From the NCBI GenBank assembly GCA_963828195.1, contig CAWHDT010000001.1:288001-352000 (forward strand): 64,000 nucleotides of DNA, in the 5' to 3' direction. Below the pieces are notes generated by a model. The model made no database searches, was not told where the DNA came from, and saw only the letters and a list, made by a program, of their open reading frames with translations. Source of the stretch: Candidatus Bathyarchaeota archaeon (lineage in GTDB: Archaea > Thermoproteota > Bathyarchaeia > Bathyarchaeales > Bathycorpusculaceae). Positions 23,841 to 40,665 of the stretch are shown piece by piece (the stretch's first letter is position 1; each line of letters begins with the position of its first letter). Both the position numbers and the translations under genes were made by a program.

Positions 23841-24383
23841 ATGTCCTGTGAACCCTGGCAATGTGCAGAAATCGCTTCAACTAAAAAAGCAAATCCGATT
23901 CAAAAACCCGAGATAGCAGTTGCAATGATCAAAAAAGCGCAACGCCCCATTCTTGTAGTGGGCAGTAACGCTACCGAAAGGTGCTTGGAAGGCAAACAAT
24001 TGATCGAGTACATAATAGATCTCGCTAACGCATCAAAAGTACCAGTAGTCGCAACAGCTCACATGGTCGGCGAATTTATAAAACGCGGATACCAACCGGC
24101 AGCATTTATGAATGCGATGGAAATCGGCAATCTAGTTGTTGATCCAACTTGGCAAGGTTTAGACGGCAAAGGTCACCCAGACCTAGTAATGTTTGTCGGG
24201 TTACCTTACTATGTTGAATCGTTAGTGCTCTGCGGACTCAAACATTTTGCACCCGACCTAAAAACCATGACCCTCGACAACCTGTTCCACGTTCACGCAA
24301 GCTGGTCTTTCCCAAACGCATCCCTTGAAGAATGGGCTGCAAACCTCAAAGTAATGACTTCAAAATTTAATGGAGGAAACTAA
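23841..24383 (+). CDS. cdhB: ACDS complex epsilon subunit
   Basis: IKKAQRPILVVG, WQGLDGKGHPDLV, LKHFAP; position in operon. Confidence 0.95.
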   Translation: MSCEPWQCAEIASTKKANPIQKPEIAVAMIKKAQRPILVVGSNATERCLEGKQLIEYIIDLANASKVPVVATAHMVGEFIKRGYQPAAFMNAMEIGNLVVDPTWQGLDGKGHPDLVMFVGLPYYVESLVLCGLKHFAPDLKTMTLDNLFHVHASWSFPNASLEEWAANLKVMTSKFNGGN

Positions 24384-24386
24384 AAA

Positions 24387-25799
24387 ATGTCTATGTTTAA
24401 AGATATACCCGTTGATGTTGGCGTAATCTACGAAGGAGAACGCATCAGAAGAAACGACATGCAAGTAGAACTCGGTGGACCCACAGTTAAACAAAAGTTT
24501 GAACTGGCAAAAGTAAAACCCATGGATGAGATCGACGATGGAAAAATCACCATCATAGGTCCAGACTTAAAAGATCTGAAGGAAGGCGGCGCATACCCAT
24601 TCGGCATTCTTGTTGAAGCTGCAGGCTCAAAGCTTGATGCAGGCCTTGAAGGTGTCATCGAGCGACGCATTCACGGCTACTTGAACTACATCGAAGGCTT
24701 CATGCACCTAAACCAGCGATATGACATCTGGATACGCATAGGCAAAAAATCATTCCAAAAAGGCTTAAACAGTTTTGAACCAATCGGCAAAGTCCTCTAC
24801 CGCCTATTCAAAAGCGAATTGCCAATCATCGAGAAAGTCCAAATTACCTTCATAACAGACCCAGCTAAACTTGACGAAATGACTCCTGAAGCAATCCAAG
24901 CATATGAATCGCGCGACGCCAAAGCAAGAGGCCTCAAAGACGAGGACGTAGACACATTCTACGGCTGCGCTCTATGCCAATCATTCGCGCCAAGCCACGT
25001 CTGCGTAATCACACCTCAAAGATACAGCAACTGCGGCGCCATCAGTTGGTTCGATGGCAAAGCCTCAGCAAGCATAGATCCGAAAGGTCCAGTCTTCGCA
25101 ATACCCAGAGGTCAAATGATCAACGCGGAGAAAGGCGAATTCTCAGGCGTCAACGAAGCAGCCAAGAAACGCAGCATGGGCGAAGTTAACCAAGTCTGGC
25201 TATACACAGCCTTTGATCACCCACACACTTCGTGTGGATGCTTCGAGGCAGTAACCTTCTACGTACCAGAGGTTGACGGATTAGCAGTAGTGCACAGAAG
25301 CTTCAAAGGCGCAACCGTAAACGGTTTACCATTCAGCACAATCGCAGACTCAGCAGCTGGCGGAAGACAAATCGACGGCTTCCACGGAATGTCTATCGAA
25401 TACATGAGAAGCAAGAAATTCTTCGCAGCAGACGGCGGATGGAACCGTGTAGTTTGGGTGCCTAAAGAAGTTAAAGAACGCGTTAAAGACTTCATTCCAA
25501 CAGAACTCGTTGATAAAATTGCAACTGAAGAAGACGCAAAGAATGTCGATGAACTCAAGGCTTTCCTGACGGCTAAGAATCACCCAGTTGTAGCAAGGTG
25601 GGCAGCCGAAGAAGCAGCAGCACCTGAAGCACAAGCAGTACAAGTTAACGAGGAAGCAGCGGGCACAATGATGCCAGTTGCAACCGCAGCATCACTACCC
25701 ATAATGGCCGGCGGATTCAAAATCATACTCAAAGACGCAAAAATCTACGCTAACAAAGTAATCATAACAACAGTCAAAGACGACAAAGACAAACGGTGA
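24387..25799 (+). CDS. cdhC: ACDS complex beta subunit (acetyl-CoA synthase)
   Basis: YEGERIR, FYGCALCQSFAPSHVC, NCGAISW, HTSCGCFE. Confidence 0.97.
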   Translation: MSMFKDIPVDVGVIYEGERIRRNDMQVELGGPTVKQKFELAKVKPMDEIDDGKITIIGPDLKDLKEGGAYPFGILVEAAGSKLDAGLEGVIERRIHGYLNYIEGFMHLNQRYDIWIRIGKKSFQKGLNSFEPIGKVLYRLFKSELPIIEKVQITFITDPAKLDEMTPEAIQAYESRDAKARGLKDEDVDTFYGCALCQSFAPSHVCVITPQRYSNCGAISWFDGKASASIDPKGPVFAIPRGQMINAEKGEFSGVNEAAKKRSMGEVNQVWLYTAFDHPHTSCGCFEAVTFYVPEVDGLAVVHRSFKGATVNGLPFSTIADSAAGGRQIDGFHGMSIEYMRSKKFFAADGGWNRVVWVPKEVKERVKDFIPTELVDKIATEEDAKNVDELKAFLTAKNHPVVARWAAEEAAAPEAQAVQVNEEAAGTMMPVATAASLPIMAGGFKIILKDAKIYANKVIITTVKDDKDKR

Positions 25800-27028
25800 T
25801 ATCTACGCCCCAAAACGACGCAGACAAAAAGACAGAAAGCGAAGGACTAAAACTCAGCGACGATCTGCTGAAAGCGCTTGCAAAATTCCAGCAAATTGAG
25901 CTGGAAGATTTCCAAATGGACGTCAAAGACCTAGAAATCGTCTTTGAACCCGGAATGGCTGGGCAAATAATGCCCAAACTTAAGCTTCCAGGCATAGCGG
26001 GCGGAAAACCAGTTTCAATGTTGCAGGCAGCTTTTCTGCCTCCAGTTGAGACCTACCCAAACAAGATCACTGAAGTAAAACTTGGGGCAACCAAAAGCGA
26101 AGGCGGGACACGCGGAAGATCATTCACCATAGGCGGAGAAGTTTCCCCTGCATTCTACAATTTTGAGCGACCAACCACTCATAAACCCGTAATTACCCTT
26201 GACGTTTTCGACATGGAAGTTCCGCTGAGCAAAGCTGTCAAAATGCACGTAAAAGACGTCGTCGGCGACCCAGCAGCATGGGCAAAACTTGCGGTAGACC
26301 AGTTCAAGGCGGATATGGTTACAATTCACTTAATCAGCATCGACCCTCTGCTCAAAGACGCTACGCCGAAAGACGCGGTGAAAACCGTTGAGAAGGTTCT
26401 GCAAGCCGTTGACGTTCCACTCGTTATCGGCGGATGCGGTGACCCAGTTAAAGACGCAGACGTTTTCCAAGCAATATGCGAAGCTTTCCCAGGTGAACGT
26501 TTCCTAATCAGCTCAATAACTCGGGATATGGATGTTGAGCGATGCGCAAAATACGTTAAAAAGAACGGACACGTAGCACTTTCATTCACTCCTATGGACT
26601 TGAATTTGGCACGTGAACTTAACAGGCGACTATACGATTTCTTGGCAAGAGAAGACATAGTCATGGACTTAACCACTGCAGCATTGGGCTACGGCTTAGA
26701 TTACGCGTTCACCAACATGGAGCGTGCAAGACTCGGCGGCTTAATGGGCGACTCTGAATTAGCTCACCCAATGTCCTCAGGAACAACCAACGCTTGGGCA
26801 GCAAGAGAAGCATGGCTAAAAATGTCAGCTGAATGGGAACCAAGAGAACTTCGAGGTCCACTCTGGGAAGTAACAACAGCCTTAACACTGTTGCTCGCTG
26901 GCGTTGACTTATTCATGATGATGCACCCTGCAGCCGTAAAAACACTAAAAGACGTAACAAACTACCTGACCAGCGGCAAAAAAGCAGATGCTTCCAAATT
27001 TGCCGATTGGGTAACATTAAAGGCTTAG
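25796..27028 (+). CDS. cdhD: ACDS delta subunit (corrinoid Fe-S protein small subunit)
   Basis: GATKSEGGTRG, TAALGYGLDY, NAWAAREAW, MMHP. Confidence 0.95.
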   Translation: MISTPQNDADKKTESEGLKLSDDLLKALAKFQQIELEDFQMDVKDLEIVFEPGMAGQIMPKLKLPGIAGGKPVSMLQAAFLPPVETYPNKITEVKLGATKSEGGTRGRSFTIGGEVSPAFYNFERPTTHKPVITLDVFDMEVPLSKAVKMHVKDVVGDPAAWAKLAVDQFKADMVTIHLISIDPLLKDATPKDAVKTVEKVLQAVDVPLVIGGCGDPVKDADVFQAICEAFPGERFLISSITRDMDVERCAKYVKKNGHVALSFTPMDLNLARELNRRLYDFLAREDIVMDLTTAALGYGLDYAFTNMERARLGGLMGDSELAHPMSSGTTNAWAAREAWLKMSAEWEPRELRGPLWEVTTALTLLLAGVDLFMMMHPAAVKTLKDVTNYLTSGKKADASKFADWVTLKA

Positions 27029-27032
27029 GAGT

Positions 27033-28466
27033 TTGATTGACATGACAGAAAAAAAGAAAGCTGGACTCAAAGAATTAAGCCCCATAGACGTTTACAAGCT
27101 TCTTCCAAAAATTAACTGCAAAGAATGCGGCGTCAACAACTGCATGGCTTTTGCGACAAAAATTGTTAACCGCGAAATGAACATTGAGCAGTGCCCACCG
27201 CTGAAAAAGAAGGAAAACGAGAAAGCATACAATCAACTAAAAGAACTGCTAAAACCCGCAGTCAAAGAAGTCATTGTCGGTGCAGGAGAAAATGCGCGCA
27301 AACTCGGCGGCAAACTAGTCATGTACCGCCACGAATTCACCTACGTAAACCCCACAGCCATCGCAATAGACGTCACTGACGAAATGGAGACGCAGGAAGT
27401 TGAAAGCCGAATAAAACGCACAGCAAACTACAGCTTCGAATACATCGGCTACACGCTAAAGCTGGATATGATTGCTGTCCGCTCAACATCAGGTGACGCT
27501 GAGAAATTCAAGGCAGTCGTGAAAAAAGTTGCTGAAACAACCAAGCTGCCAATGGTTCTATGCTCCTTGAACTCCACCGTTCTTGAAGCTGGACTGATGG
27601 CGGCTCCGAAAGCAAGACCTCTACTTTATGCAGCTACCAAAGAAAACTGGAAAGACATGGCGGAACTCGCCTTAATGTACAGTTGCCCACTTGTGGTTTC
27701 TGCGCCAAACGACCTAAACACGCTGGTTTCGCTAGTTAAAACCTTGACTGCTTACGGCGTAACTGACTTGGTTTTAGACCCAGGCACATTCCCAAACGAA
27801 GGCTTACCCGACACAATAAACAACTTTACGATGCTCCGAAGAGCAGCAACTAGAGGCGGCGAAGAACTCGCTGGATTCCCATTGATGGGTGTTCCTATGG
27901 CTGCTTGGGTAGGTAAAGGCGAAACAGCTGACGACCTCATCAAATGGCGTGAAGCATACTTAGCAGCCATGCTTGTTGTACGCTACGCAGACATACTTGT
28001 AATGCACGGAAATGACGGGTGGTCACTTTTGCCCATAACGGTGCTAAGACAAAACATTTACACCGACCCACGCAAACCAGTCGCGGTTGCTCCAGGACTC
28101 AAAGTGTTCGGAACGCCAGACGAAAACTCGCCAGTCATGTTCACCTCGAACTTCGCATTGACCTACTACACTGTCGCCTCAGACTTAGACAGCAACAAAC
28201 TCAACGCCTACCTCATCGTCGTCGAAACTGAAGGCTCAGCCATAGATAGCGGAGTCGCAGGACGCAAACTCACCGCCGAACGAGTCGCAGACGCAATTAA
28301 ATCCTCAGGCATAGAGAGCAAAGTCAAGCACAGAAAAATCATCATCCCAGGAAAAGCCTCACGCATAAGCGGCGAAATCGAAGAACTCAGCGGCTGGAAA
28401 GTCCAAGTTGGACCACGCGACAGCAGCGAAATACCCAAATACCTCATAGAAAAATGGCAACCCTAA
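27033..28466 (+). CDS. cdhE: ACDS gamma subunit (corrinoid Fe-S protein large subunit)
   Basis: LPKINCKECGVNNCMAFA, RQNIYTDPRKP, NFALTYY, VGPRDSSEIP. Confidence 0.97.
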   Translation: MIDMTEKKKAGLKELSPIDVYKLLPKINCKECGVNNCMAFATKIVNREMNIEQCPPLKKKENEKAYNQLKELLKPAVKEVIVGAGENARKLGGKLVMYRHEFTYVNPTAIAIDVTDEMETQEVESRIKRTANYSFEYIGYTLKLDMIAVRSTSGDAEKFKAVVKKVAETTKLPMVLCSLNSTVLEAGLMAAPKARPLLYAATKENWKDMAELALMYSCPLVVSAPNDLNTLVSLVKTLTAYGVTDLVLDPGTFPNEGLPDTINNFTMLRRAATRGGEELAGFPLMGVPMAAWVGKGETADDLIKWREAYLAAMLVVRYADILVMHGNDGWSLLPITVLRQNIYTDPRKPVAVAPGLKVFGTPDENSPVMFTSNFALTYYTVASDLDSNKLNAYLIVVETEGSAIDSGVAGRKLTAERVADAIKSSGIESKVKHRKIIIPGKASRISGEIEELSGWKVQVGPRDSSEIPKYLIEKWQP

Positions 28467-30038: not shown

Positions 30039-30238
30039 TAAAAATTAAAAATGATAACAAAACCAGCCACGAAAAGCGCTTCCCTCACCTGTTTATTTGG
30101 TATTTTTCCCAGCCTTATTCTTCATTTCATTAAGGCTTAAACATGTTAAAATCTCCATGCTTTTTAGCTAAATATGTACTAAAAGCTGATAAAGCAGTAT
30201 TTCACTTCATCCCCCTTTACTGCGAGGGGAAACCGAAA

Positions 30239-31720
30239 ATGGGGTGCGGTATCTTTGGCGTAATAAATTATGAAAATCAACCTGTTTTTCCGTATGTTTA
30301 CTGGGGTCTCCGAGCCCAAAACCATCGGGGTCACCAATCACACGGTTTTCTTACTTTTAGCGACAAGCAATTTTTTGTTTACAAGAACTTGGATTTGGTT
30401 CCTAAAATAAAAACTGATGCCCTGCATGACTGGTTCAGTCGGCTTCCAGGCTCAATCGGCATCGGCAACGTGCGGTACACCACGTCGGGCAAATGCGATG
30501 ATGCCTCGCTGATCAAGGGCACACAGCCAGTAACCGCCTCAGAAAAAGGAATAAACCTTGCGCTCTCATTTAACGGCAACATAGTCAACACGTCGCCGCT
30601 GAAGAAAGAGATGACTGAAAACTTCCAAAACTTCCAGTACGGTTGCGACTCAGACTTAGTAGCTCATAAACTGCTTCTTGGACTTAAGCAGGGCAAAGAC
30701 TTAGCATCCGCCGTCCGCGCCGTCATGGAAAGCTTAGATGGAGCATTCTCAGTCACAGGCATAACTGGAAACGGCGACTTTTTCGCCTTCAAAGACCCAC
30801 TTGGAATAAAACCGCTTTGTGCAGGACACGACCCTGCTGGGAAAACCTACGCTTTTTCCTCCGAAACCGTAAGCTTGGACATGAACAGCTTCGTAAGAGA
30901 CTTCGAATTGAAACCAGGCGAACTGGTCACGGTTTCAAAAGACGGCTTCAAACGCACCCAAATCATCCCGAACCCCCGCCAAGCCTTCTGCGCCTTCGAA
31001 TACGCTTATTTCGCTAGGCCCGATTCGAGGTTCAACGGTAAATACGTCTACGAAATACGCGAGGACTTCGGAAGAAACATCGTGAAGGAGTACCCTGAAA
31101 TTGTGAAGGGCAGTGACATAATTTTGTCGGTGCCTGAAACGGGCGATGACCCCGCTATGGGCGTGCATGCGGCATCAGGCTTACGTTGGGAACGGGCGTC
31201 AAGGCGGCACCGCTACGTTACCGAGCGAGCCTTTATACTTCTAAATGCAGAGCGTTTTTCAACAATCGATAAGAAAATTAACATTTTAGGGTCCAAAGTT
31301 GCTGGAAAACGCGTCATAATAACCGAAGACAGCATAGTTAGAGGCGACACAACCAAAGTAATCATAGATAAGCTGCGTAAATCAGGCGCCAAAAAAGTTT
31401 ATGTTTTCGTTACTTTTCCACGGATTATCGGTCCATGCTTCTACGGGATTGATATGTCAACTTACGGGCAGCTTATCGGCTCAAGACACAATGAAGAGGA
31501 AATAGCTAAAATCATAGGTGCAGACGGTGTATGCTACCAATCCATTGAGGCGCTGATTCAGGCTACGGGTCAAACGGAAGACCAGCTATGTCTAGCCTGC
31601 ATAACAGGCAAGTACCCTACTCCCTGCGCACAAAAAATGGCGGACGCAATGAAGAAGAAATTCCTTGAAGGCTACGAAGAAAAAACAAGAATCTACGAGT
31701 CAACCGAAATTCAGCCATAA
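30239..31720 (+). CDS. purF: Amidophosphoribosyltransferase
   Basis: MGCGIFG, QNHRG, GNVRYTTSG, NGNIVN, CAFEYAYFARPDS, EDSIVRGDT, CFYGIDM, CLAC. Confidence 0.95.
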   Translation: MGCGIFGVINYENQPVFPYVYWGLRAQNHRGHQSHGFLTFSDKQFFVYKNLDLVPKIKTDALHDWFSRLPGSIGIGNVRYTTSGKCDDASLIKGTQPVTASEKGINLALSFNGNIVNTSPLKKEMTENFQNFQYGCDSDLVAHKLLLGLKQGKDLASAVRAVMESLDGAFSVTGITGNGDFFAFKDPLGIKPLCAGHDPAGKTYAFSSETVSLDMNSFVRDFELKPGELVTVSKDGFKRTQIIPNPRQAFCAFEYAYFARPDSRFNGKYVYEIREDFGRNIVKEYPEIVKGSDIILSVPETGDDPAMGVHAASGLRWERASRRHRYVTERAFILLNAERFSTIDKKINILGSKVAGKRVIITEDSIVRGDTTKVIIDKLRKSGAKKVYVFVTFPRIIGPCFYGIDMSTYGQLIGSRHNEEEIAKIIGADGVCYQSIEALIQATGQTEDQLCLACITGKYPTPCAQKMADAMKKKFLEGYEEKTRIYESTEIQP

Positions 31721-31776: not shown

Positions 31777-33195
31777 TTGATGGAGAAAATAGGTGTACTT
31801 GTCGTTTCCTACGGCGCAAGAGAAGTCGCCATGGTTGACGCTCTTCTACAAAGCAAAAAATATCTAGTTGAGCTCTACATCGCCGACAAACAACGCAACC
31901 CTTTCAACGCTGAAAAAGCCACAAAACACGTCGTCATCCCAAATTTGGATGTTGAAGAAATCAGCAAGTTCGCCGAATCCAACAAGGATAAAATCGATTT
32001 TGCCTTGGTCGGATCCGAAAAACCCATAATCGAAGGCATCCGCGACATAGTGGAGAAACGTACAGGCATACCGGTTATTTGCCCGAAGCAACACTGCGCC
32101 ATTGAAGTCAGCAAAATTGAGCAGCGCCTGCTATTCCAAGAGATTGCCCCCGAAGCCAATCCACGTTTCAAAATCTTTGATCCAGCCGACTACAAAGGCG
32201 AAGCGGAGGTTAAAAGCGCCGTGTATCGTTGGCTAGATGAACTTGACAATCAAGCAGTTGTGAAGCCTGATAAGCCTGCTTTGGGAAAGGGCGTGGGCGT
32301 CTGGGGCGACCACTTCGCAACGCGTGAGCAGCTTTTTGAGAATTTCATGTCCAATTTCAAGTATGGCTCTGTTATTATTGAAGAAAAAATTGATGGGGAA
32401 GAATCAAGTTTCATGGCTTTCTGCGACGGCAAACACTTTATTCCTCTGCCAGATACACGCGATTACAAACGCGCTTTCGACGACGATAAAGGTCCAAACA
32501 CCGGCGGCATGGGCTCCTACAAAGACGCAGGTTACACTTTGCCCTTCTTGACAGCCTCCGAGCGTGAGCAGGAGCTTGCGTTAGCTAACAAGATTTTCAA
32601 GGGTTGGTGTTCCAAAATCAACGATGACACCGCCCTCAGAGGTGTGCCTCTGTATCTTGCTTTCATGCACACCGGCAAGGGCATTAAGGTTCTTGAGATC
32701 AACAGTCGCCCAGGAGACCCAGAAATAATAAATTTGTTAGCGCTAATTCAAGATGATTTTGTTGAGTTATGCTTAGAAATGGTTGAGGGCAGCCTAGCGA
32801 ACGTCAAATTAAAGAACGCTGCCTCCGTCTTAATTTACAAAGTTCCCTCGGACTATGGAGGCTACGCAGACAATTTCCCAGATAAGATTGATGAGCAATC
32901 AATTAACGGTCCAGTTGACCTTTCAAAAGCCCAAGCATTAATTACAAAATACGGCAACAACATCCGCGTTTACCCCGGCTCAATGGAAACAAGAGACGGC
33001 AAAAACTACGCTCTTAAATCACGAGCCGTCGGCGTCCTAGGCATCGGGGACAGCATTGAGGAGGCACGCCAAATCAGCCAAGAAGGCGCCAAAGCAATTA
33101 CCGGCGGAGCATTATGGAACCGAACCAACGTTGCCTCAGAGGAGCACATAGCAAAAAGCATCCGCCATATGGAGAGTTTGAGGGGCAACATGTGA
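31777..33195 (+). CDS. purD: Phosphoribosylamine-glycine ligase
   Basis: GARE, GKGV, GEESSF, DYKRAFDDDKGPNTGGMGSY, EINSRPGDPE. Confidence 0.95.
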   Translation: MMEKIGVLVVSYGAREVAMVDALLQSKKYLVELYIADKQRNPFNAEKATKHVVIPNLDVEEISKFAESNKDKIDFALVGSEKPIIEGIRDIVEKRTGIPVICPKQHCAIEVSKIEQRLLFQEIAPEANPRFKIFDPADYKGEAEVKSAVYRWLDELDNQAVVKPDKPALGKGVGVWGDHFATREQLFENFMSNFKYGSVIIEEKIDGEESSFMAFCDGKHFIPLPDTRDYKRAFDDDKGPNTGGMGSYKDAGYTLPFLTASEREQELALANKIFKGWCSKINDDTALRGVPLYLAFMHTGKGIKVLEINSRPGDPEIINLLALIQDDFVELCLEMVEGSLANVKLKNAASVLIYKVPSDYGGYADNFPDKIDEQSINGPVDLSKAQALITKYGNNIRVYPGSMETRDGKNYALKSRAVGVLGIGDSIEEARQISQEGAKAITGGALWNRTNVASEEHIAKSIRHMESLRGNM

Positions 33196-34274
33196 AGCGC
33201 ATCTTCATATCTGACTGCGAGGGACCAATCTCAAAAAATGACAACGCCTTCGAGTTAGCCACCAACTTTATTCCAAACGGCGACAGCCTTTTCGCTAACA
33301 TCAGCAAATACGATGATGTGCTGGCGGATGTGCTCCAAAAACCAGGCTACTCCGCCGGCAGCACGCTAAAATTAATTTTACCCTTCTTCAAAGCCTACGG
33401 CGTAACCGACAAGCAGATGGAAGATTTCTCAGCCAACAACATCGTATTAATCGCCAACAGCCAAACCACCCTGAACCACGTACAAGCCATAGCCCACGCG
33501 TTTATCGTCAGCACCAGCTACCAACACTATATCAAAGCCTTATGCAGAGCACTCAACTTCCCCTACAAAAACACGTACTGCACAAAAGTAACCCTTGACA
33601 AATGCGCCATCACCCCCCAAGAAAAAGACTGCCTGAAAAAAATAGCCCAAGAAATTACCCAAATGCACCTAATCGATATCCCTCAAGACGCAAAAACCCT
33701 TAAAGATTTTTCACATGGTGACCAAGCGGCTATTACGCGTTTAGATGAGATTTTCTGGAGTGAAATCCCAAAGATGTTCATTGGCAAATTCCTCGTGGAT
33801 GTGGTGACGGTCGGCGGGGAACAGAAAGCTGAGGCAATCCACGATGCCGCGAAGCGGTCGGGAGCAGACTTAGCGGATGTCATGTATGTGGGAGACAGTA
33901 TAACGGATGTGGAAGCCTTCAAGCTGGTTCGAGCAAACGGCGGCTTAACCGTATCTTTCAACGGCAACATTTATGCAGTTAAAAATGCTGAAGCAGCGGT
34001 TATGTCGGAAAACAGTCTTGTCACAGCTGTGATTGCTGACTTGTTCTGCAGATTCGGAAAAGAAAAAACAATAAGCGCCGTTGAGTCATGGAGTTACGAT
34101 ATTCTCAAAAAAAGCGGCGTAAACGATGTTTTGTTGAGACAGTTTTCAGGTTTGTATGCTGATGCTCTGCCCAAAGCCCAAATAGTAACTGCCCAAAACA
34201 TGGAATCGCTTATAAAAGAAAGCAGCGAATTCAGAAAAAAAGTTAGAGGCGTAGAAGTTGGGGGGCTCGGATAA
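33192..34274 (+). CDS. HAD-superfamily phosphohydrolase (EhaR-like), GTG start overlapping the purD stop
   Basis: Motif I variant ISDCEGP, motif II VSTS, motif III K (QKAEA), motif IV GDSITD. Confidence 0.8.
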   Translation: MKRIFISDCEGPISKNDNAFELATNFIPNGDSLFANISKYDDVLADVLQKPGYSAGSTLKLILPFFKAYGVTDKQMEDFSANNIVLIANSQTTLNHVQAIAHAFIVSTSYQHYIKALCRALNFPYKNTYCTKVTLDKCAITPQEKDCLKKIAQEITQMHLIDIPQDAKTLKDFSHGDQAAITRLDEIFWSEIPKMFIGKFLVDVVTVGGEQKAEAIHDAAKRSGADLADVMYVGDSITDVEAFKLVRANGGLTVSFNGNIYAVKNAEAAVMSENSLVTAVIADLFCRFGKEKTISAVESWSYDILKKSGVNDVLLRQFSGLYADALPKAQIVTAQNMESLIKESSEFRKKVRGVEVGGLG

Positions 34275-35185
34275 TGCCCGTTGAGGCGGAAATAGAAGAT
34301 ACCTTTGCTGAAGCGTTTAGAGGAATCTTTTGCAGAATCATCGTAACAGCAGACGACGTGGAAACTTTGCGTAAGGCCGCTGAAGACTCAACGGCAACTC
34401 CCTCCGTTGTGATCGGCAGGACGGAAGGAGGCGTCGAGAAATACCTCAGCAAAAAAGAAACCCCTGACCAGCGGATAGGCGCATTACTGCAGCTCTGGGG
34501 ACAAATAAACCCCAAAAAAAGTTTTGAGCAGTCTCTGAAAAAATTTGAAACCGAGCTTTCATACCGTATTCGCCAGGACATTTTGGTAAAGCCATTCACC
34601 GCCGTCTACGACGCTTTGCCTAAGGCTGAAGGCAAAATCGACCTGATGGAGACAGTTGGGCACTGCGGCGACGGGTACGAGTGGGTTGAAAAGCGGCATG
34701 GAAGAGAAGTCATCGTTGTCCCGCTGATGGTTCCAGACTTCATCATTGAACAGTGCATAGGTTACAGCTACGGCGTTATGGGCGGCAACTTTTGGGTAAT
34801 GTGCAAAACAAAACAAGCCTTACAGCAAGCAGCAGAGAAAGCTTTGGCAGCTGTCCACAAAATGCCTGGCATAGTTACGCCTTTTGATGTATGCTCAGCA
34901 GGCTCCAAGCCAGAAACGCATTTTCCAAAGATTGGACCAACCACAAACCATCAGTATTGCCCCTCTCTTAAGGCGCATTTAGGTAAAGAATCCCTTGTCC
35001 CAGAAGGTGTTGGTTATATAGCTGAGGTCGTTTTTGATGGTGTTTCTTTAGATGCTGTTAAAGAGGCGACAAAAGCAGGAGTCAAAGCAGTGTTAAGTAT
35101 TGATGGAGTTGTAAAGGTTTCCGCTGGCAACTACGGCGGCAAATTAGGAGACTACAAAATATTTTTGCGGGAGCTTTTTCCATGA
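34274..35185 (+). CDS. Formylmethanofuran:H4MPT formyltransferase (Ftr)-like protein
   Basis: IEDTFAEAF, ETPDQRIG, GDGYE, VPLMVPDF, GVMGGNF, PTTNHQYCPSL, VSAGNYGGKLG; the divergent segments PSVVIGR and RIRQDIL suggest a paralog rather than canonical Ftr. Confidence 0.88.
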   Translation: MPVEAEIEDTFAEAFRGIFCRIIVTADDVETLRKAAEDSTATPSVVIGRTEGGVEKYLSKKETPDQRIGALLQLWGQINPKKSFEQSLKKFETELSYRIRQDILVKPFTAVYDALPKAEGKIDLMETVGHCGDGYEWVEKRHGREVIVVPLMVPDFIIEQCIGYSYGVMGGNFWVMCKTKQALQQAAEKALAAVHKMPGIVTPFDVCSAGSKPETHFPKIGPTTNHQYCPSLKAHLGKESLVPEGVGYIAEVVFDGVSLDAVKEATKAGVKAVLSIDGVVKVSAGNYGGKLGDYKIFLRELFP

Positions 35186-36096
35186 TTAAATTTGACGTCG
35201 TCGGTTTCGGCGCGCTCAATGTTGACATGCTTTTCAAAGTTGACAAGCTTGCGGGAGCTGAAGAAGAACGCTTCATCGAAGACTACACTGAAGCTTGCGG
35301 CGGCTCAGCAGCGAACACAGTTGTTGGGTTGGCGAGGCTGGGCTGCAAAACAGGTTTCATAGGAAAAGTAGCTAATGATCGAGAAGGCAAAATGCAAATG
35401 GATTGTTTCAGCAACGAAGGCGTCAACACCAGCGGCATCATTGAGGCAAAACAGGGCAAGAGCGGTTCAGTGATGGGTTTCGTGGACAAGAAAGGTGCCC
35501 GGGCGTTGTACATTAACTCAGGCGTCAACGACACAATTGAGCCCCGCGAAATAAACTACAGTTACCTTTCGGAGACAAAATTCCTGCATCAATCCTCTTT
35601 TGTCGGAGAAAAAAGTTTTCGTGCACAAAAAAAGCTTTTGGCAGCTTTGCCCAGCGATGTTAAAATCAGTTTTGACCCTGGCTCAGTTTACGCTCAGAAG
35701 GGTTTTGCAGCCATAGAGCCGCTAATCAGAAGCTCTTATGCCTTGATGCCTAACGCTGTTGAACTTGAACTGTTAACGGGGGAAGCTGACTACCGCGACG
35801 GCGCAGATCTGATGATTGGGCTGGGCGTCAAAATTGTCGCCGTTAAACTTGGAAGCAACGGCTGTTATGTCACCGACGGCGAGCAAAAGCTAAGGATTGA
35901 ACCATTCAAAGTAAAGGTGGTTGACACGACCGGTGCCGGAGACGCTTTCTGCGCTGGTTTCCTCTACGGTTTAATCAACAGCAAAAGCCTCTATGAGTGT
36001 GGTCGACTGGGAAATTTTGTTGCATCCCGAAGCGTCACCGCGATGGGTGCCCGCGTTGGCCTGCCGTACGCGAAGGATTTAGCATTTCTTTATTAA
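35182..36096 (+). CDS. PfkB/ribokinase-family kinase
   Basis: GGSAANT..GLARLG, FDPG, PNAVE, DTTGAGDAFCAG. Confidence 0.92.
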   Translation: MIKFDVVGFGALNVDMLFKVDKLAGAEEERFIEDYTEACGGSAANTVVGLARLGCKTGFIGKVANDREGKMQMDCFSNEGVNTSGIIEAKQGKSGSVMGFVDKKGARALYINSGVNDTIEPREINYSYLSETKFLHQSSFVGEKSFRAQKKLLAALPSDVKISFDPGSVYAQKGFAAIEPLIRSSYALMPNAVELELLTGEADYRDGADLMIGLGVKIVAVKLGSNGCYVTDGEQKLRIEPFKVKVVDTTGAGDAFCAGFLYGLINSKSLYECGRLGNFVASRSVTAMGARVGLPYAKDLAFLY

Positions 36097-36900
36097 ATTG
36101 TCAATTATGCTTTGGAAAATCAGTTTTCCGTCGCCATACTGCAGCATTTGCTGTTGGCGTGTCCAGTCGGGTTGCTGCCACCAGTACATGGCTCTCTCGG
36201 GATGCGGCATTAAACCGAAGATGTTTCCTTCCCTGTTGCATATGCCTGCGATGTCGTGGAAGGCGCCGTTGGGGTTAGCTGGATATTTGCCGTCGGCGAC
36301 GTTGCCGTTTTTGTCGCAGTAGCGGAAAACAACCATGTCCTCATCTATCAGCCTTGCAAGTATTTCTTCTTCCTTATCTTTTGGAAACAGCAATCTGCCT
36401 TCTCCATGGGCAATCGGCATCTTGACCACTTTTCCAGCTGGAATTTTGCTTGAGAACATGCATTTGCCTTTATTTTCGTGTTTGAGGTAAATCCACTGGC
36501 ACTTGAATCCCGCTGGCTCGTTTGTCGTTAATGTCGCTTCTGGATACTTGCTCATTCCCTCAAGTCCTGGAAGCAAGCCGTATTCAACCAGAATCTGGAA
36601 GCCGTTGCATATGCCCAGAATCGGTCTTCCTTCATCAATAAAGGTTTCAATTTCCTTCCCTAACTTGGCGCTGAGCCACCTTGCAAAAATGACTCCTGAA
36701 CGCACATAATCGCCGAACGAGAAGCCGCCTGGAAAAACCATCACCTGATAATCCAGCAGGTTTTTGCGTTTTATCAATTCGTTAACATGCAAGGTTTCTG
36801 CTTGAACGCCCAGCTCCAAAAAAGCCCTGTGAGTTTCAGCGTCGCAGTTGGTTCCGCCGACACGCAAAACGCAGACCTTGATTTCTTCTTGTAACATCAA
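36079..36900 (-). CDS. purQ: FGAM synthase glutaminase subunit
   Basis: GTNCD, PGGFSFGD, LGICNGFQ, AHGEG, MPHPER. Confidence 0.96.
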   Translation of the reverse strand: MMLQEEIKVCVLRVGGTNCDAETHRAFLELGVQAETLHVNELIKRKNLLDYQVMVFPGGFSFGDYVRSGVIFARWLSAKLGKEIETFIDEGRPILGICNGFQILVEYGLLPGLEGMSKYPEATLTTNEPAGFKCQWIYLKHENKGKCMFSSKIPAGKVVKMPIAHGEGRLLFPKDKEEEILARLIDEDMVVFRYCDKNGNVADGKYPANPNGAFHDIAGICNREGNIFGLMPHPERAMYWWQQPDWTRQQQMLQYGDGKLIFQSIIDNLIKKC

Positions 36901-39278
36901 TATTCCCCGCTTAACGTTTTTTTCCAGCTATGCCTCAACTCAGCAAGTGAAGCGTCAACGACTGTTTTTTGGTTTAAACCGTGGATTAGCAGTTTTTGGT
37001 CTTTAGTTACTTTGCCGATTTGAGCACAATTTTTGCCCTTCATTAACGCTTCAAATTGGTGTTTGTCGGTTTCTGAGACTTCAATGAGGAAGCGGCTGTT
37101 AGATTCTGAAAACAGTACAAAGTCATTTCGCGCAAGCTCTCTGCCAAGCACTTTAGCTAAATCCAGCTCCAAGCCCAAGCCGCCTGCAAACGCCATTTCC
37201 GCCGCCGCCACCGCCAATCCGCCTTCAGACAGGTCGTGGCACGACTTGATTAAGCCCAAGTCAATGGCTTTTGTTACGGCTTTGAATGTGCGTTTGGCTT
37301 TCGCTCCCTTCACTTTGGGAACGCTTGCGCCTAAGCAGCCTCTGAGTTTGTAGTATTCTGAACCGCCCAGTTCATTGAATGTTTCTCCGATTAGGTAGAG
37401 CAGGTTGCCGTGTGCTTTCAAATCCATAGATGTAGTGACTTGAATATTGGGAATTATACCTACAGCGGTTATCAGAAGCGTCGGCGTGACGGGACCCATC
37501 GGGGACTCGTTGTAGAGGCTGTCTTTTCCCGAGATAAACGGCGTCCTAAAAGCTGTTGCGAAGTCATAGCAGGCTTCACAGGCTCTCACAAGCGAGCCTA
37601 ACCGCTCCGGTTTCTCTGGGTTGCCCCACGTGAAGTTATCCAGCAGCGAAATTCTTCTTCCGCCGACGGCAACGTTGTTTCTGACTGCCTCATCAATAGC
37701 TGAAGCAGCCATCCAGTAAGCATCAATCTTTCCATAATTCGGGTTCATCCCGCATGAAATAGCCAAGCCCTTCCATGAGTCATCGAGTGGTTTCAGAACC
37801 GCCGCGTCGTTTGGTCCCGCGTACTCACCCTGTAAGGGTTTTAGCGTTGTATTTCCTTTTACTTCATGGTCATATGTGCGAATCACACTTTCTTTGCTGG
37901 CGATGTTTGGTGCAGAAAGAAGCTGCAGCAGGGTTTCAGTTAGGTTTTCTGGCTGCGAAAACTCGGGCTCCAAGAGCTTGAAGGTTTCAATGATTGCTGT
38001 TTTCGTGCTGCTGCAGGGGTTAAACAGAAAAGTCATGTCTATATCGGCTACTTTCTGGCCGTTGAAATTAAGCTGTAGACGACGTTGGGTTGTTAGTTTG
38101 CCTATTGCTGTGGCTTGAACGTCTTCTTTCTCAAAAATTGCCATAACTCGCTCAAGGTTTTCGGGCGGAACTGTTATGAGCATTCTTTCTTGGGATTCTG
38201 ATATGTAAATTTCCCATGGAGCTAAACCCTGATACTTCAACGGCACCTTATCTAGTTCAACGATTGTTCCGCAGCCGAATTTTTCAGCTGTTTCGCCGAC
38301 TGCCGACGACAAGCCTCCTCCCCCGAGGTCAGTTGTTGAAGACGCTAATTGCACGTCACGGATTTCTATTATTGCCCGCTTAACTTTTTCTTCTTCAATC
38401 GGGTCAGCAATCTGCACGGCGGGGCGAGAGATTTCTTCTGATTTTTCGGTTAGTTCGGCTGAGGCGAAGGTTACGCCGTGTATGCCGTCGCGCCCTGTTT
38501 TTCCGCCTGCCAAAACGATTATGTGTTCGGGTTTGGCGTTTTTGACGAATTTGTTTAACGGTAAGAGTCCTATGCACCCGCAGTACACTGTGACGTTGCC
38601 TGTGTAGCTTTCGTCAAAGTAGATTGCCCCGTTGACAGTGGGGATGCCCATGTTGTTGCCATACGCGCTGATGCCTGCAGTGACGCCCATGTACACGTAT
38701 TTTGGGTGTTTTATACCGGCGGGCAACTTTTTGTAATCGTAATCTAGCGGTCCGAAGCCTAAAACGTCGGTGCAAGCGATTGGGTCAGCCCAGACGCCTA
38801 AGATGTCTCGAATTACGCCGCCGACACCTGTTGCTGCGCCGCCGAAGGGTTCAATTGCGGACGGGTGGTTGTGTGTTTCCACTTTTGCCGCTATTCCATA
38901 GCCCTTGTCGAAGCGAACGATACCGGCATTGTCTTCGAAGACGCTGAAGCACCATGGCGCCCTGATTTCTTTGGTGGCTTTTGCAATGTAGGTTTTGAAT
39001 AGGCTGTCGATTTCTCTGTCGCCGATTCGGATTTTTCCTTTGAAGGTTTTGTGGCAGCAGTGTTCTGACCATGTTTGGCTGATTGTCTGCAGTTCCACAT
39101 CGGTCGGGTTCCTGTCTTCCTTAATAAAATAAGCTTGTGTAGCCTTCATTTCGTCTAAGCTTAATCCTAAGGCGAGTTCGCTGCTGATTTCGACTAGTTG
39201 CTGGTCGCTGGCTTTTGCCAACGCAACCTGGAGGAGTGCGCTGCCGGCTTTGCTTTGGATGTAGAGGTTAGCGTTCAT
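36897..39278 (-). CDS. purL: FGAM synthase synthetase subunit
   Basis: WSEHCCHK, KVETHNHPSAIEP, GRDGIHG, SESQERM, SGKDSLYNE, HDLSEGG. Confidence 0.97.
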   Translation of the reverse strand: MNANLYIQSKAGSALLQVALAKASDQQLVEISSELALGLSLDEMKATQAYFIKEDRNPTDVELQTISQTWSEHCCHKTFKGKIRIGDREIDSLFKTYIAKATKEIRAPWCFSVFEDNAGIVRFDKGYGIAAKVETHNHPSAIEPFGGAATGVGGVIRDILGVWADPIACTDVLGFGPLDYDYKKLPAGIKHPKYVYMGVTAGISAYGNNMGIPTVNGAIYFDESYTGNVTVYCGCIGLLPLNKFVKNAKPEHIIVLAGGKTGRDGIHGVTFASAELTEKSEEISRPAVQIADPIEEEKVKRAIIEIRDVQLASSTTDLGGGGLSSAVGETAEKFGCGTIVELDKVPLKYQGLAPWEIYISESQERMLITVPPENLERVMAIFEKEDVQATAIGKLTTQRRLQLNFNGQKVADIDMTFLFNPCSSTKTAIIETFKLLEPEFSQPENLTETLLQLLSAPNIASKESVIRTYDHEVKGNTTLKPLQGEYAGPNDAAVLKPLDDSWKGLAISCGMNPNYGKIDAYWMAASAIDEAVRNNVAVGGRRISLLDNFTWGNPEKPERLGSLVRACEACYDFATAFRTPFISGKDSLYNESPMGPVTPTLLITAVGIIPNIQVTTSMDLKAHGNLLYLIGETFNELGGSEYYKLRGCLGASVPKVKGAKAKRTFKAVTKAIDLGLIKSCHDLSEGGLAVAAAEMAFAGGLGLELDLAKVLGRELARNDFVLFSESNSRFLIEVSETDKHQFEALMKGKNCAQIGKVTKDQKLLIHGLNQKTVVDASLAELRHSWKKTLSGEY

Positions 39279-39526
39279 TTCTGCTCCTCAACGGTTACTG
39301 TGTAGTTGTCTTTAGTTGGGTTTGCCAAAAGGCGCTTGCTCATTTCTTCAGCTTTTTCTTTAGCTTCTTGGAGTTTTGGCGCTTCCAAGGTGACTGTGTA
39401 AACTTTGCTAACATTTACCGCTTGCACTTTGTAGCCGAGTTCTTTCAGCAGGCGCGCGGTTGTTTCCCCTTCAGGATTGCTGTGACCGGGTTTAAGGCTA
39501 ACTTCAATTTTAACGCGGTATTTCAT
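39275..39526 (-). CDS. purS: FGAM synthase small subunit
   Basis: LKPG..NPEG, LLANP..DNY. Confidence 0.93.
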   Translation of the reverse strand: MKYRVKIEVSLKPGHSNPEGETTARLLKELGYKVQAVNVSKVYTVTLEAPKLQEAKEKAEEMSKRLLANPTKDNYTVTVEEQK

Positions 39527-39585: not shown

Positions 39586-40665
39586 TTATGTCAGCAACAT
39601 CTTTTTGTCTTGATAGCGGATTTCCACGGTTTGTCGAGAAGTTACTTTCCCGATTATTTCAGGTTTAACGCCTTCTTGCTCAAGCGCACTCATGGCTTTG
39701 TCGATTTCTTTTTTATCCACAATTAACCCAAACCCCCAGCCCATGTTGAAGGTTTTGAACATTTCCTCGTCACTGATGCTGAAGCCCAGTTCAGACGCTG
39801 TCTTTTGAATCAACCCGAATATTGGTTGAGGATTGAAGTGGTTGAATTCAAAGCCTATGCCAGGCGAGGAACCTGCAAGATTATTGAATTTCGTGTAGGC
39901 GTCGCCCGTGATGTGTACGGCTGCTTTGACCTTAACTTCGTTTGCCAGCGCAAGGACGGGTTTGACGTAAATTTCTGTGGGTTCAAGAGCTTCAAGAACG
40001 ATTTCTCTGCCTAAGCCTTCTGGGACGTCATCCGGCTCGTATTTTCCGCCCCACTGCTTGAACAATATTTTTCTTGCCATCGTTATGCCGTTGCTGTGCA
40101 ATCCGCTGCTGGGTAAACCTATAATCGGGTCGTCAGGCTTGATGTTTTCGCCAGTTATGATTTCTTGCCTCGCAACTTCACCGACGGAAGCCACCACCAT
40201 GTCAAAACCTGCGTTTTCAGCTAAGCCCTTTATTATTTCAGCTACGTCGCCTGTTTCGCCGCCTGTAACTGGGCATTGGGCTTGAGCGGCGCCCTGCATG
40301 ATTCCTTTCAGCCACTCTTTCACCAGCCCTGGGTTGCTTTCCTGCGCATGAATGTTATCTGCTATCGCAAGCGGTTTAGCTCCTGAACGGATGACGTCGT
40401 TGACCGCCATGGCTACTGCGTCGACGCCGATTGTGTCATATTTCCCCGCCAGCTGGGCTAAAAGAACTTTGGTGCCGACGCCTTCGATGACCAAGTCGAG
40501 ATAGGTGTTTTCTGTAATTGGAAAAATGTTGCCGTATGGCAGATGCATGACGCCGCCGAATAGGCTGTATTTGTAGGTTTCTTTGAGGTTTTTGAGCGCT
40601 TTTTTGGATTCCACGCGTTGCTGGCGGTTTACGCCTGCATCTGTGTATGTGTAGTTTTTAGGCAA
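39586..40665 (-). CDS. purM: AIR synthetase
   Basis: YTDAGV, EGVGTK, GGET, SSGLHSNG, HITG, EMFKTFNMGWG. Confidence 0.95.
   Translation of the reverse strand: MPKNYTYTDAGVNRQQRVESKKALKNLKETYKYSLFGGVMHLPYGNIFPITENTYLDLVIEGVGTKVLLAQLAGKYDTIGVDAVAMAVNDVIRSGAKPLAIADNIHAQESNPGLVKEWLKGIMQGAAQAQCPVTGGETGDVAEIIKGLAENAGFDMVVASVGEVARQEIITGENIKPDDPIIGLPSSGLHSNGITMARKILFKQWGGKYEPDDVPEGLGREIVLEALEPTEIYVKPVLALANEVKVKAAVHITGDAYTKFNNLAGSSPGIGFEFNHFNPQPIFGLIQKTASELGFSISDEEMFKTFNMGWGFGLIVDKKEIDKAMSALEQEGVKPEIIGKVTSRQTVEIRYQDKKMLLT

Follow-up and report, generated by a model that had tools for sequence, protein, structure and literature searches.

A HAD–Ftr2–PfkB gene trio as a candidate for step 3 of purine biosynthesis in archaea without PurN or PurT

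The window analyzed here, a 64,000-nucleotide stretch of the genome of a Candidatus Bathyarchaeota archaeon (GenBank assembly GCA_963828195.1, contig CAWHDT010000001.1, positions 288,001 to 352,000 of the forward strand), holds a purine biosynthesis (pur) cluster in which purD is followed by three genes. These encode a HAD phosphatase-like protein, a paralogue of formylmethanofuran:tetrahydromethanopterin (H4MPT) formyltransferase (Ftr) that falls in a clade termed Ftr2, and a PfkB-family kinase. We propose that HAD-Ftr2-PfkB is a conserved module that probably supplies step 3, the conversion of glycinamide ribonucleotide (GAR) to formylglycinamide ribonucleotide (FGAR), in archaea lacking both PurN and PurT. 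The proposal draws on sequence comparison, gene order, and distribution across genomes.

On the forward strand, purF-purD-HAD-Ftr2-PfkB faces purQ-purL-purS-purM on the reverse strand, and the genes from purD to PfkB overlap by 1 to 4 bases (Table 1). Read directly from the sequence, the purD/HAD overlap is GTGA at 33192–33195, with the GTG start of HAD lying over the TGA stop of purD, while the HAD/Ftr2 junction is TAATG at 34272–34276 and the Ftr2/PfkB junction is ATGA at 35182–35185. The original prediction, made from the sequence of this region, had reported these three overlapping stop and start codons along with PurF, PurD, PurSLQ, and PurM; the junctions are all present, and the open reading frames (ORFs) and families are as described. 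The GTG start at 33192 puts HAD motif I (DCEGP) 8 residues from the N-terminus and gives a protein of the same length as 100 of the 120 best relatives listed. In PurF, the catalytic Cys is present within CGIFG, and the true start of purF is likely near 30239 (MGCGIFG). The trio belongs to the same three families as EhaR, EhaS, and EhaT, the last genes of the ehaA-T operon of Methanothermobacter, where Eha denotes energy-converting hydrogenase A. Unlike EhaR/S/T, the window trio has no hydrogenase context; it stands after purD and faces purQLSM, so that purD and purQ, rather than the end of an eha operon, flank it (this applies to the window, as the genome was not searched for eha).

Table 1. 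Positions of the pur cluster genes and of their upstream neighbors in the window
Feature	Position	Strand	Basis
Carbon monoxide dehydrogenase/acetyl-CoA synthase (CODH/ACS) genes cdhB, cdhC, cdhD and gamma subunit	23841-28466	+	
ATPase_2 / STAND-like P-loop ATPase, 361 aa	28573-29658	+	no NCBIfam match
purF, amidophosphoribosyltransferase, step 1	30143-31720	+	TIGR01134 313 bits vs cut-off 350; GATase_7 domain
purD, GAR synthetase, step 2	31777-33195	+	GARS_N, GARS_A, GARS_C domains; TIGR00877 240.9 bits, below cut-off 288
EhaR-type HAD-IB phosphatase-like protein, 360 aa	33192-34274	+	HAD Pfam matches; AF1437 homologue
Ftr2-clade formyltransferase (EhaS-type), candidate step-3 enzyme	34274-35185	+	PF01913 + PF02741
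PfkB-family (ribokinase-like) kinase, EhaT-type	35182-36096	+	PF00294 178.9 bits, residues 5-295
purQ, formylglycinamidine ribonucleotide (FGAM) synthase glutaminase subunit, step 4	36079-36900	-	NF002252 322 bits, above cut-off
purL, FGAM synthase II, step 4	36897-39278	-	TIGR01736 693.6 bits, above cut-off
purS, step 4	39275-39526	-	TIGR00302 74.1 bits, above cut-off
purM, aminoimidazole ribonucleotide synthetase, step 5	39586-40665	-	TIGR00878 256.3 bits, above cut-off

We searched the complete assembly (2.83 Mb in 9 contigs, 96.14% complete) for the enzymes of the pathway. At this completeness, the PurN fold (PF00551) had 0 matches genome-wide, and the best genome-wide match to the PurT model TIGR01142 reached 46.6 bits against a cut-off of 502. 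There were four such weak PurT matches, of which the two examined are MfnD-like and MptN-like ATP-grasp proteins; the other two we take to be CarB, judging from their 1102-aa frame. PurH and FolD likewise gave no match in the 96%-complete genome. The original prediction had noted that the cluster lacks PurN and PurT; neither gene is there, and neither was found when looked for in the rest of the genome, where its presence would have spoken against the proposed function. Other purine genes were detected, namely PurC (188.7 bits), PurE (130.4 bits), PurB (534 bits), and two copies of PurP, with a tandem purP-purP-purC cluster located elsewhere in the same genome (G000:C5:339359-341939). Among the purine steps searched for, which did not include inosine monophosphate cyclohydrolase, step 3 alone was left without a candidate.

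The genome carries two Ftr genes, the window copy and a separate canonical Ftr. The window protein has both lobes at full length (PF01913, 148.8 bits; PF02741, 179.9 bits) and scores above the cut-off of the subfamily model NF002554 (333 bits vs 297) but below that of the equivalog model TIGR03119 (236 bits vs 292). In a quick tree of 50%-identity cluster representatives, 12 Ftr2 rows, the window copy included, were set apart from 38 canonical rows, among which the genome's other Ftr fell. A careful tree of 38 named sequences separated 25 Ftr2 from 13 Ftr1 rows, with a split support of 100/100. Both the tree position and the TIGR03119 score thus place the window protein outside the canonical Ftr1 orthologue group, and the separate clade contemplated in the original prediction was recovered, with the window protein in it as a second copy. 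Members of the Ftr2 clade come from Bathyarchaeia, Asgard archaea (Borrarchaeum, Promethearchaeota), Methanobrevibacter, Archaeoglobaceae, Methanophagales/Alkanophaga, and Hydrothermarchaeota.

The predicted catalytic glutamate of Ftr2, E251, is invariant in 12 Ftr2 sequences, is at least 90% conserved in each clade (25 Ftr2 and 13 Ftr1 sequences), and aligns with the Glu of 1M5H. In Methanopyrus kandleri Ftr, the catalytic glutamate is presumably Glu245. Fifty positions are at least 90% conserved in both clades, and 22 are Ftr2-specific, among them C131, R100, and P250, the last of which immediately precedes the catalytic Glu and is Tyr in Ftr1. In FhcD, the catalytic glutamate is numbered Glu252 in the relevant passage of PMC6926001. 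Both Pfam lobes are common to the window protein and canonical Ftr/FhcD (PDB 1FTR, 2FHJ, 1M5H, 1M5S, 6S6Y); the window protein shares 36–40% identity with cluster representatives of the Ftr1 clade, and its score against 1M5H is 184 bits. The chemistry shared with Ftr, as proposed for Ftr2, would be formyl transfer to or from an aminomethyl nitrogen. Ftr2 differs from Ftr1 in being encoded in pur clusters together with a phosphatase and a kinase, and in occurring in the absence of PurN and PurT; in the relatives of this genome, it is invariably an additional copy that accompanies Ftr1.

The HAD protein shows D8-x-E10-G-P, S107-T108, K212, and G234-D-S-I-T-D239 as motifs invariant in 14 sequences, with motif I carrying Glu where most phosphatases have a second Asp. 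AF1437 of Archaeoglobus fulgidus (PDB 1Y8A, a "hypothetical protein") scores 255.8 bits against the family profile and is thus a solved member of this EhaR-type HAD family. The AlphaFold2 model of the window protein (predicted local distance difference test score 95.6) has template modeling (TM) scores of 0.80/0.91 to 1Y8A; the next nearest structures are phosphoserine phosphatases, with TM scores of at most 0.47. In an Archaeoglobaceae genome, the AF1437-type homologue does not adjoin Ftr2, unlike the window HAD. We also observed a C-terminal tail, R-G-x(4-5)-L-G, in 13 of the 14 sequences (34239–34271 in the window), Borrarchaeum being the exception. The PfkB protein has DTTGAGDAF, of which the GAGD anion-hole motif, G251-A-G-D254, is invariant in 9 sequences. 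Its best equivalog is ribokinase (TIGR02152), at 166.4 bits against a cut-off of 299.65. A predicted complex of HAD with PfkB scored 0.00 and supports no call on binding.

Gene order beyond the window was assessed in contigs from other genomes, from which 80 loci were kept, 68 of Ftr2 type, 67 of these with an Ftr2 ORF call. HAD lies directly upstream and PfkB directly downstream of Ftr2 in 42 of the 67 loci, purD lies directly upstream of the trio in 36 of those 42, and purL, purQ, or purM is also in the flank in 28. An arrangement this recurrent is not due to chance. In the Asgard archaeon Borrarchaeum (L076), purF-purD-HAD-Ftr2-PfkB-purL-purQ-purM runs on one strand, so that the trio sits between the genes for steps 2 and 4; another locus (L048) has the order purL-Q-M-D-HAD-Ftr2-PfkB, and the Methanobrevibacter loci (L053) have HAD-Ftr2-PfkB as the EhaR/S/T arrangement. 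A contig labeled as from a Bacteroidaceae bacterium (L055) also has HAD-Ftr2-PfkB, with neighbors like those of L053, and is probably a mis-binned archaeal contig. At three loci from Bathyarchaeota metagenome-assembled genomes (L029, L050, L075), the pur and trio genes are split into many short ORFs, which looks like assembly frameshift errors and not gene decay.

We then compared the distribution of Ftr2 with that of PurN and PurT in two phyla. The Bathyarchaeia sample comprised 151 genomes, each at least 80% complete, with PurD found in 126. Ftr2 profile scores were bimodal, at 339 bits or more in 58 genomes, which we call Ftr2-positive, and at 275 bits or less otherwise. A PurN-family match was present in 59 genomes, 16 of them above the curated cut-off, and a PurT-like match (at least 225 bits) in 11, a twelfth match being PurK. 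Among the 126 PurD-positive genomes, 54 had Ftr2 only, 67 had PurN-family or PurT-like genes only, one had both (G130), and four had neither (G041, G050, G058, G095); in G058, the order is purF-purD-HAD and then the contig ends. The second sample was drawn from the phylum to which an Archaeoglobaceae genome belongs and comprised 101 genomes, of which the Ftr2-positive ones (n = 47) scored 383 bits or more and the rest 286 bits or less. Here 43 genomes had Ftr2 only, 52 of the 54 Ftr2-negative genomes had PurN or PurT only, four had both (G162, G173, G184, G227), and two had neither (G226, G234). Both of these last have HAD and the trio-type PfkB, and G234 carries in addition, at a contig edge, a fragment of Ftr whose score density resembles that of Ftr2. 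These counts describe a pattern and are not a test; Fisher tests were computed but, given the kinship among genomes, are not relied on. The mutual exclusion with purN/purT and frequent pur synteny expected in the original prediction were thus borne out as a strong anti-correlation in two phyla and as 36 loci with the trio after purD.

The pattern is not simply one of folate users vs H4MPT users, since genomes with both Ftr1 and PurT have no Ftr2. All 11 PurT-like Bathyarchaeia genomes are without Ftr2, eight of them having Ftr1 and three having no Ftr match, and all 10 second-phylum genomes with Ftr1 and PurT are likewise without Ftr2.

The partner genes follow Ftr2. Each of the 58 Ftr2-positive Bathyarchaeia genomes has HAD, as do 5 of 5 Ftr2 genomes tested from other lineages. 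Among Bathyarchaeia without Ftr2, HAD occurs in G058 and in five genomes with a divergent PurN-like gene, and in 0 of the other 87. In the second phylum, 43 of the 47 Ftr2-positive genomes have HAD, as do six others, namely the two with neither Ftr2 nor PurN/PurT and four with a PurN of altered loop. A trio-linked PfkB profile, with scores of at least 229 bits defining the orthologue class, tracks Ftr2 and HAD: in the second phylum, the trio-type PfkB is found in 46 of the 47 Ftr2-positive genomes, the 47th having a fragment that adjoins its HAD, and in 7 of the 54 Ftr2-negative genomes, six of which carry HAD. HAD adjoins PfkB in at least 15 second-phylum genomes, and HAD-PfkB-Ftr2 is contiguous in two.

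What occupies the slot after purD in Bathyarchaeia without Ftr2 varies. It is PurT in G016; a 279-aa PurN-like gene followed by purE, purB, and purM in G047; and a PurN-like gene with canonical PurN and FolD in G097 and G121. In G034 (L089) and G028 (L093), purD is followed by a divergent 281-aa PurN-like gene and then by the same HAD and PfkB, and in G124 (L092) by the divergent PurN-like gene and an HAD within which the contig ends. In G034-type loci, a PurN-fold enzyme has displaced Ftr2 in place within the module, and a single family (f21) holds both module types. The divergent protein scores 74.5 bits to TIGR00639 and keeps the N-x-H-P and D motifs, but is without the G-x-G-[ST]-N loop, reading SSGRDAAARAL there. 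We take this loop to be the part of PurN that binds the phosphate of GAR. In four second-phylum genomes (G172, G194, G203, G211), HAD and PfkB are paired with a PurN whose loop reads SASSWGGNL.

Passages of Brown 2011 (PMC3261824) and Chadwick 2022 (PMC9012536) state that Archaeoglobi, Methanobacteriales, M. kandleri, and anaerobic methanotrophic (ANME) group 1 archaea have no identifiable GAR formyltransferase, which agrees with the statement in the original prediction that several H4MPT-using archaea have no identified enzyme for this step. For Methanobacteriota, our statements on GAR formyltransferase rest on such literature passages. An "Ftr2" clade is described by Chadwick 2022 in ANME-1, ANME-2a/2b, Archaeoglobales, M. 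kandleri, and M. marburgensis, with no purine link drawn in the passages concerned, and the lineages reported there and in Brown 2011 as without GAR formyltransferase are those reported with Ftr2. The prediction had also said that a similar trio is annotated as EhaR/S/T, and the Joint Genome Institute name on the HAD relatives is indeed "energy-converting hydrogenase A subunit R"; in Kaster 2011, EhaS and EhaT count as subunits of Eha. In Creative Commons papers in PMC and in bioRxiv, we found no report linking Ftr or H4MPT to GAR formylation. As far as sequence comparison can indicate, the trio appears to be the best candidate for a step that, since 2011, has been described as missing from several groups of archaea.

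The suggestion that the Ftr paralogue may be the step-3 enzyme is therefore supported from three sides, by the gap in the pathway, the separate clade, and the anti-correlation with PurN/PurT. On balance, we favor Ftr2 acting as a formyltransferase through the retained Ftr Glu, with the Wood-Ljungdahl pathway providing the formyl group from its H4MPT or methanofuran pool; this donor is suggested by membership in the Ftr family and by the absence of folate enzymes. The reaction proposed for the module is that of PurN and PurT, whose genes follow purD in related genomes just as the trio does here and whose distribution is mutually exclusive with that of the module. Unlike PurN, which uses 10-formyl-tetrahydrofolate, and PurT, which uses formate and ATP, the module is of unrelated fold, with no PF00551 and no PurT-type ATP-grasp; its donor is presumably H4MPT- or methanofuran-bound formyl, and it has two extra enzymes.

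As to those two enzymes, it is possible, with the balance slightly on the negative side, that the HAD phosphatase and PfkB kinase form an obligate pair working on the ribose phosphate of the acceptor. Formyltransferases of two unrelated folds have the pair beside them, whereas canonical PurN and PurT do not, and from this we infer that the target of the pair is the acceptor and not the donor. GAR might lose its phosphate, receive the formyl group as the riboside, and then be phosphorylated again; alternatively, the acceptor might gain an additional phosphate that is later taken off. Either variant would cost one ATP, as PurT does. The idea that HAD removes and PfkB restores the 5′-phosphate, which came with the original prediction, is in keeping with the obligate partnership of HAD and PfkB that we observed. 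Spelled out as a third, non-homologous route to FGAR, this ATP-driven "riboside shunt" is doubtful in its particulars. The EhaR-type phosphatase would take the 5′-phosphate off GAR, Ftr2 would formylate the riboside from the N5-formyl-H4MPT or formyl-methanofuran pool, and the EhaT-type PfkB kinase would trap the product as FGAR; certain lineages would use, in place of Ftr2, a PurN-like enzyme lacking the G-x-G-[ST]-N loop. The Eha hydrogenase replenishes one-carbon (C1) intermediates withdrawn for biosynthesis, and the shunt would also explain why Methanobacteriales keep the trio at the end of the eha operon. A weak formyl donor, considered as the reason for the ATP cost, was kept only as a partial idea.

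Several points weigh against the proposed function. The window protein exceeds the NCBI Ftr subfamily cut-off, which leaves room for an ordinary Ftr activity. Ftr2 is without HAD and PfkB flanks in 25 of the 67 loci, mostly from outside Bathyarchaeia and several on short contigs, and ANME-1-type loci have Ftr2 neighbors from gluconeogenesis. Of the PurN-family calls in Bathyarchaeia, 43 of 59 fall below the curated cut-off, and their GAR activity is assumed. G130 has Ftr2 together with a sub-cut-off PurN-family gene, 4 of the 47 Ftr2-positive second-phylum genomes also have PurN over the cut-off, and passages of Chadwick 2022 (PMC9012536) place Ftr2 in ANME-2a/2b, which have PurN. Kinship among the genomes also means that the evolutionary events are fewer than the counts suggest. 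The proposal gives no full reason for a phosphatase and a kinase: a weak donor cannot be all of it, because HAD and PfkB occur with a PurN-like enzyme, too, in genomes that lack PurP. According to a passage of Brown 2011 (PMC3261824), labeling studies disagree on where purine C8 comes from in Methanobacteriales. We found no enzyme assay, mutant, or labeling result for Ftr2, the EhaR-type HAD, or the EhaT-type kinase. With genomes that have both systems, solitary Ftr2 genes, and gluconeogenic neighbors in ANME-1-type loci, the picture is incomplete.

In the ANME-1-type loci (L054, L064, L051, L068), genes for a tetratricopeptide repeat protein, a fructose-bisphosphate (FBP) aldolase/phosphatase, a PfkA-type kinase, and an aldolase-like protein lie between HAD and Ftr2, these identities being our own reading of the sequences, made without a family search.

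Other functions for the module have to be weighed against this background. It might formylate another ribose metabolite, such as a cofactor precursor, aminoimidazole carboxamide ribonucleotide (AICAR), or a salvage intermediate, with a different enzyme carrying out step 3 and the pur linkage reflecting shared regulation or precursor supply. Such a role would suit a generic, ribokinase-like PfkB, HAD-IB relatives that act on varied phosphoesters, the FBP aldolase/phosphatase and PfkA-type kinase flanked by HAD and Ftr2 in ANME-1-type loci, and the four second-phylum genomes with both Ftr2 and PurN. We nonetheless regard it as improbable: it leaves unexplained why Ftr2 and HAD are absent wherever PurN or PurT is present and why PurT, PurN, and the module alternate in the slot after purD, and step 9 is already accounted for by PurP. 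Very improbable, in our view, is that Ftr2 is a second formylmethanofuran:H4MPT isoenzyme of the Wood-Ljungdahl pathway or methanogenesis, with HAD and PfkB as unrelated sugar-metabolism neighbors. The deep split between clades and the 22 clade-specific positions, including Pro for Tyr at position 250, speak against this, as do the 71 of 129 Bathyarchaeia genomes with any Ftr match in which Ftr1 is alone, the co-occurrence of HAD and PfkB with Ftr2 across phyla, and the fact that Ftr2 presence tracks PurN/PurT absence and not C1 pathway presence. In favor of an isoenzyme are the NF002554 score, the catalytic Glu and the 50 positions common to both clades, and the CODH/ACS genes 3.7 kb upstream of purF.

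A formate- and ATP-dependent PurP paralogue might instead formylate GAR, leaving the trio with another role. The genome does have two tandem purP genes adjoining purC, and a passage of Brown 2011 (PMC3261824) describes the function of PurP cluster II as unknown. Tandem PurP pairs also occur, however, in PurT genomes (G005, G016, G068, G103) and PurN genomes (G060, G097), while just one PurP-like gene, a divergent one, is present in 12 Ftr2-positive genomes, and Methanobacteriales have a single PurP yet are without PurN and PurT in the account of the same passage. PurP copy number does not follow PurN/PurT absence, and we therefore give this explanation hardly any chance. Next to no chance remains for the trio being subunits or accessories of the Eha hydrogenase. 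The names EhaR, EhaS, and EhaT in Methanothermobacter, and co-transcription with ehaA-R there (Kaster 2011), favor that role, whereas the window, 36 other loci, and an Asgard genome place the trio in pur clusters with no adjoining hydrogenase gene, and all three proteins belong to soluble enzyme families with intact catalytic motifs.

If the HAD-Ftr2-PfkB module does supply step 3, it would close a hole in archaeal metabolic reconstructions, those of Bathyarchaeia and Asgard genomes included; the lineages reported to have no identifiable GAR formylation enzyme include purine prototrophs such as Methanothermobacter. Purine C8 would be tied directly to the H4MPT or methanofuran C1 pool, and not to folate or free formate. 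Functions would be given to the long-unexplained EhaR, EhaS, and EhaT and to the structural-genomics protein AF1437, and a phosphatase-kinase pair would represent a new way to drive formyl transfer. The step-3 prediction is directly testable with existing proteins and cofactors.

A few further observations concern the genomes and the surroundings of the cluster. The CODH/ACS genes listed in Table 1 make the Wood-Ljungdahl core and the purine cluster near neighbors in the window, and the P-loop ATPase gene lies between the cdh and pur clusters. Five genomes of one Bathyarchaeia genus (g69) have no PurD, PurN, PurT, or HAD match; four of them (G112, G136, G139, G142) have two Ftr1-type matches, at about 240 bits or less, and the fifth (G118) has one. 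PurD scored 222–271 bits, below the TIGR00877 cut-off, in every HAD-module Bathyarchaeia genome, a few contig-cut fragments scoring lower, and 300–505 bits in 57 genomes without HAD. PurD divergence was dropped as a marker of the module, as one family without HAD (f15) also scores 243–253 bits.

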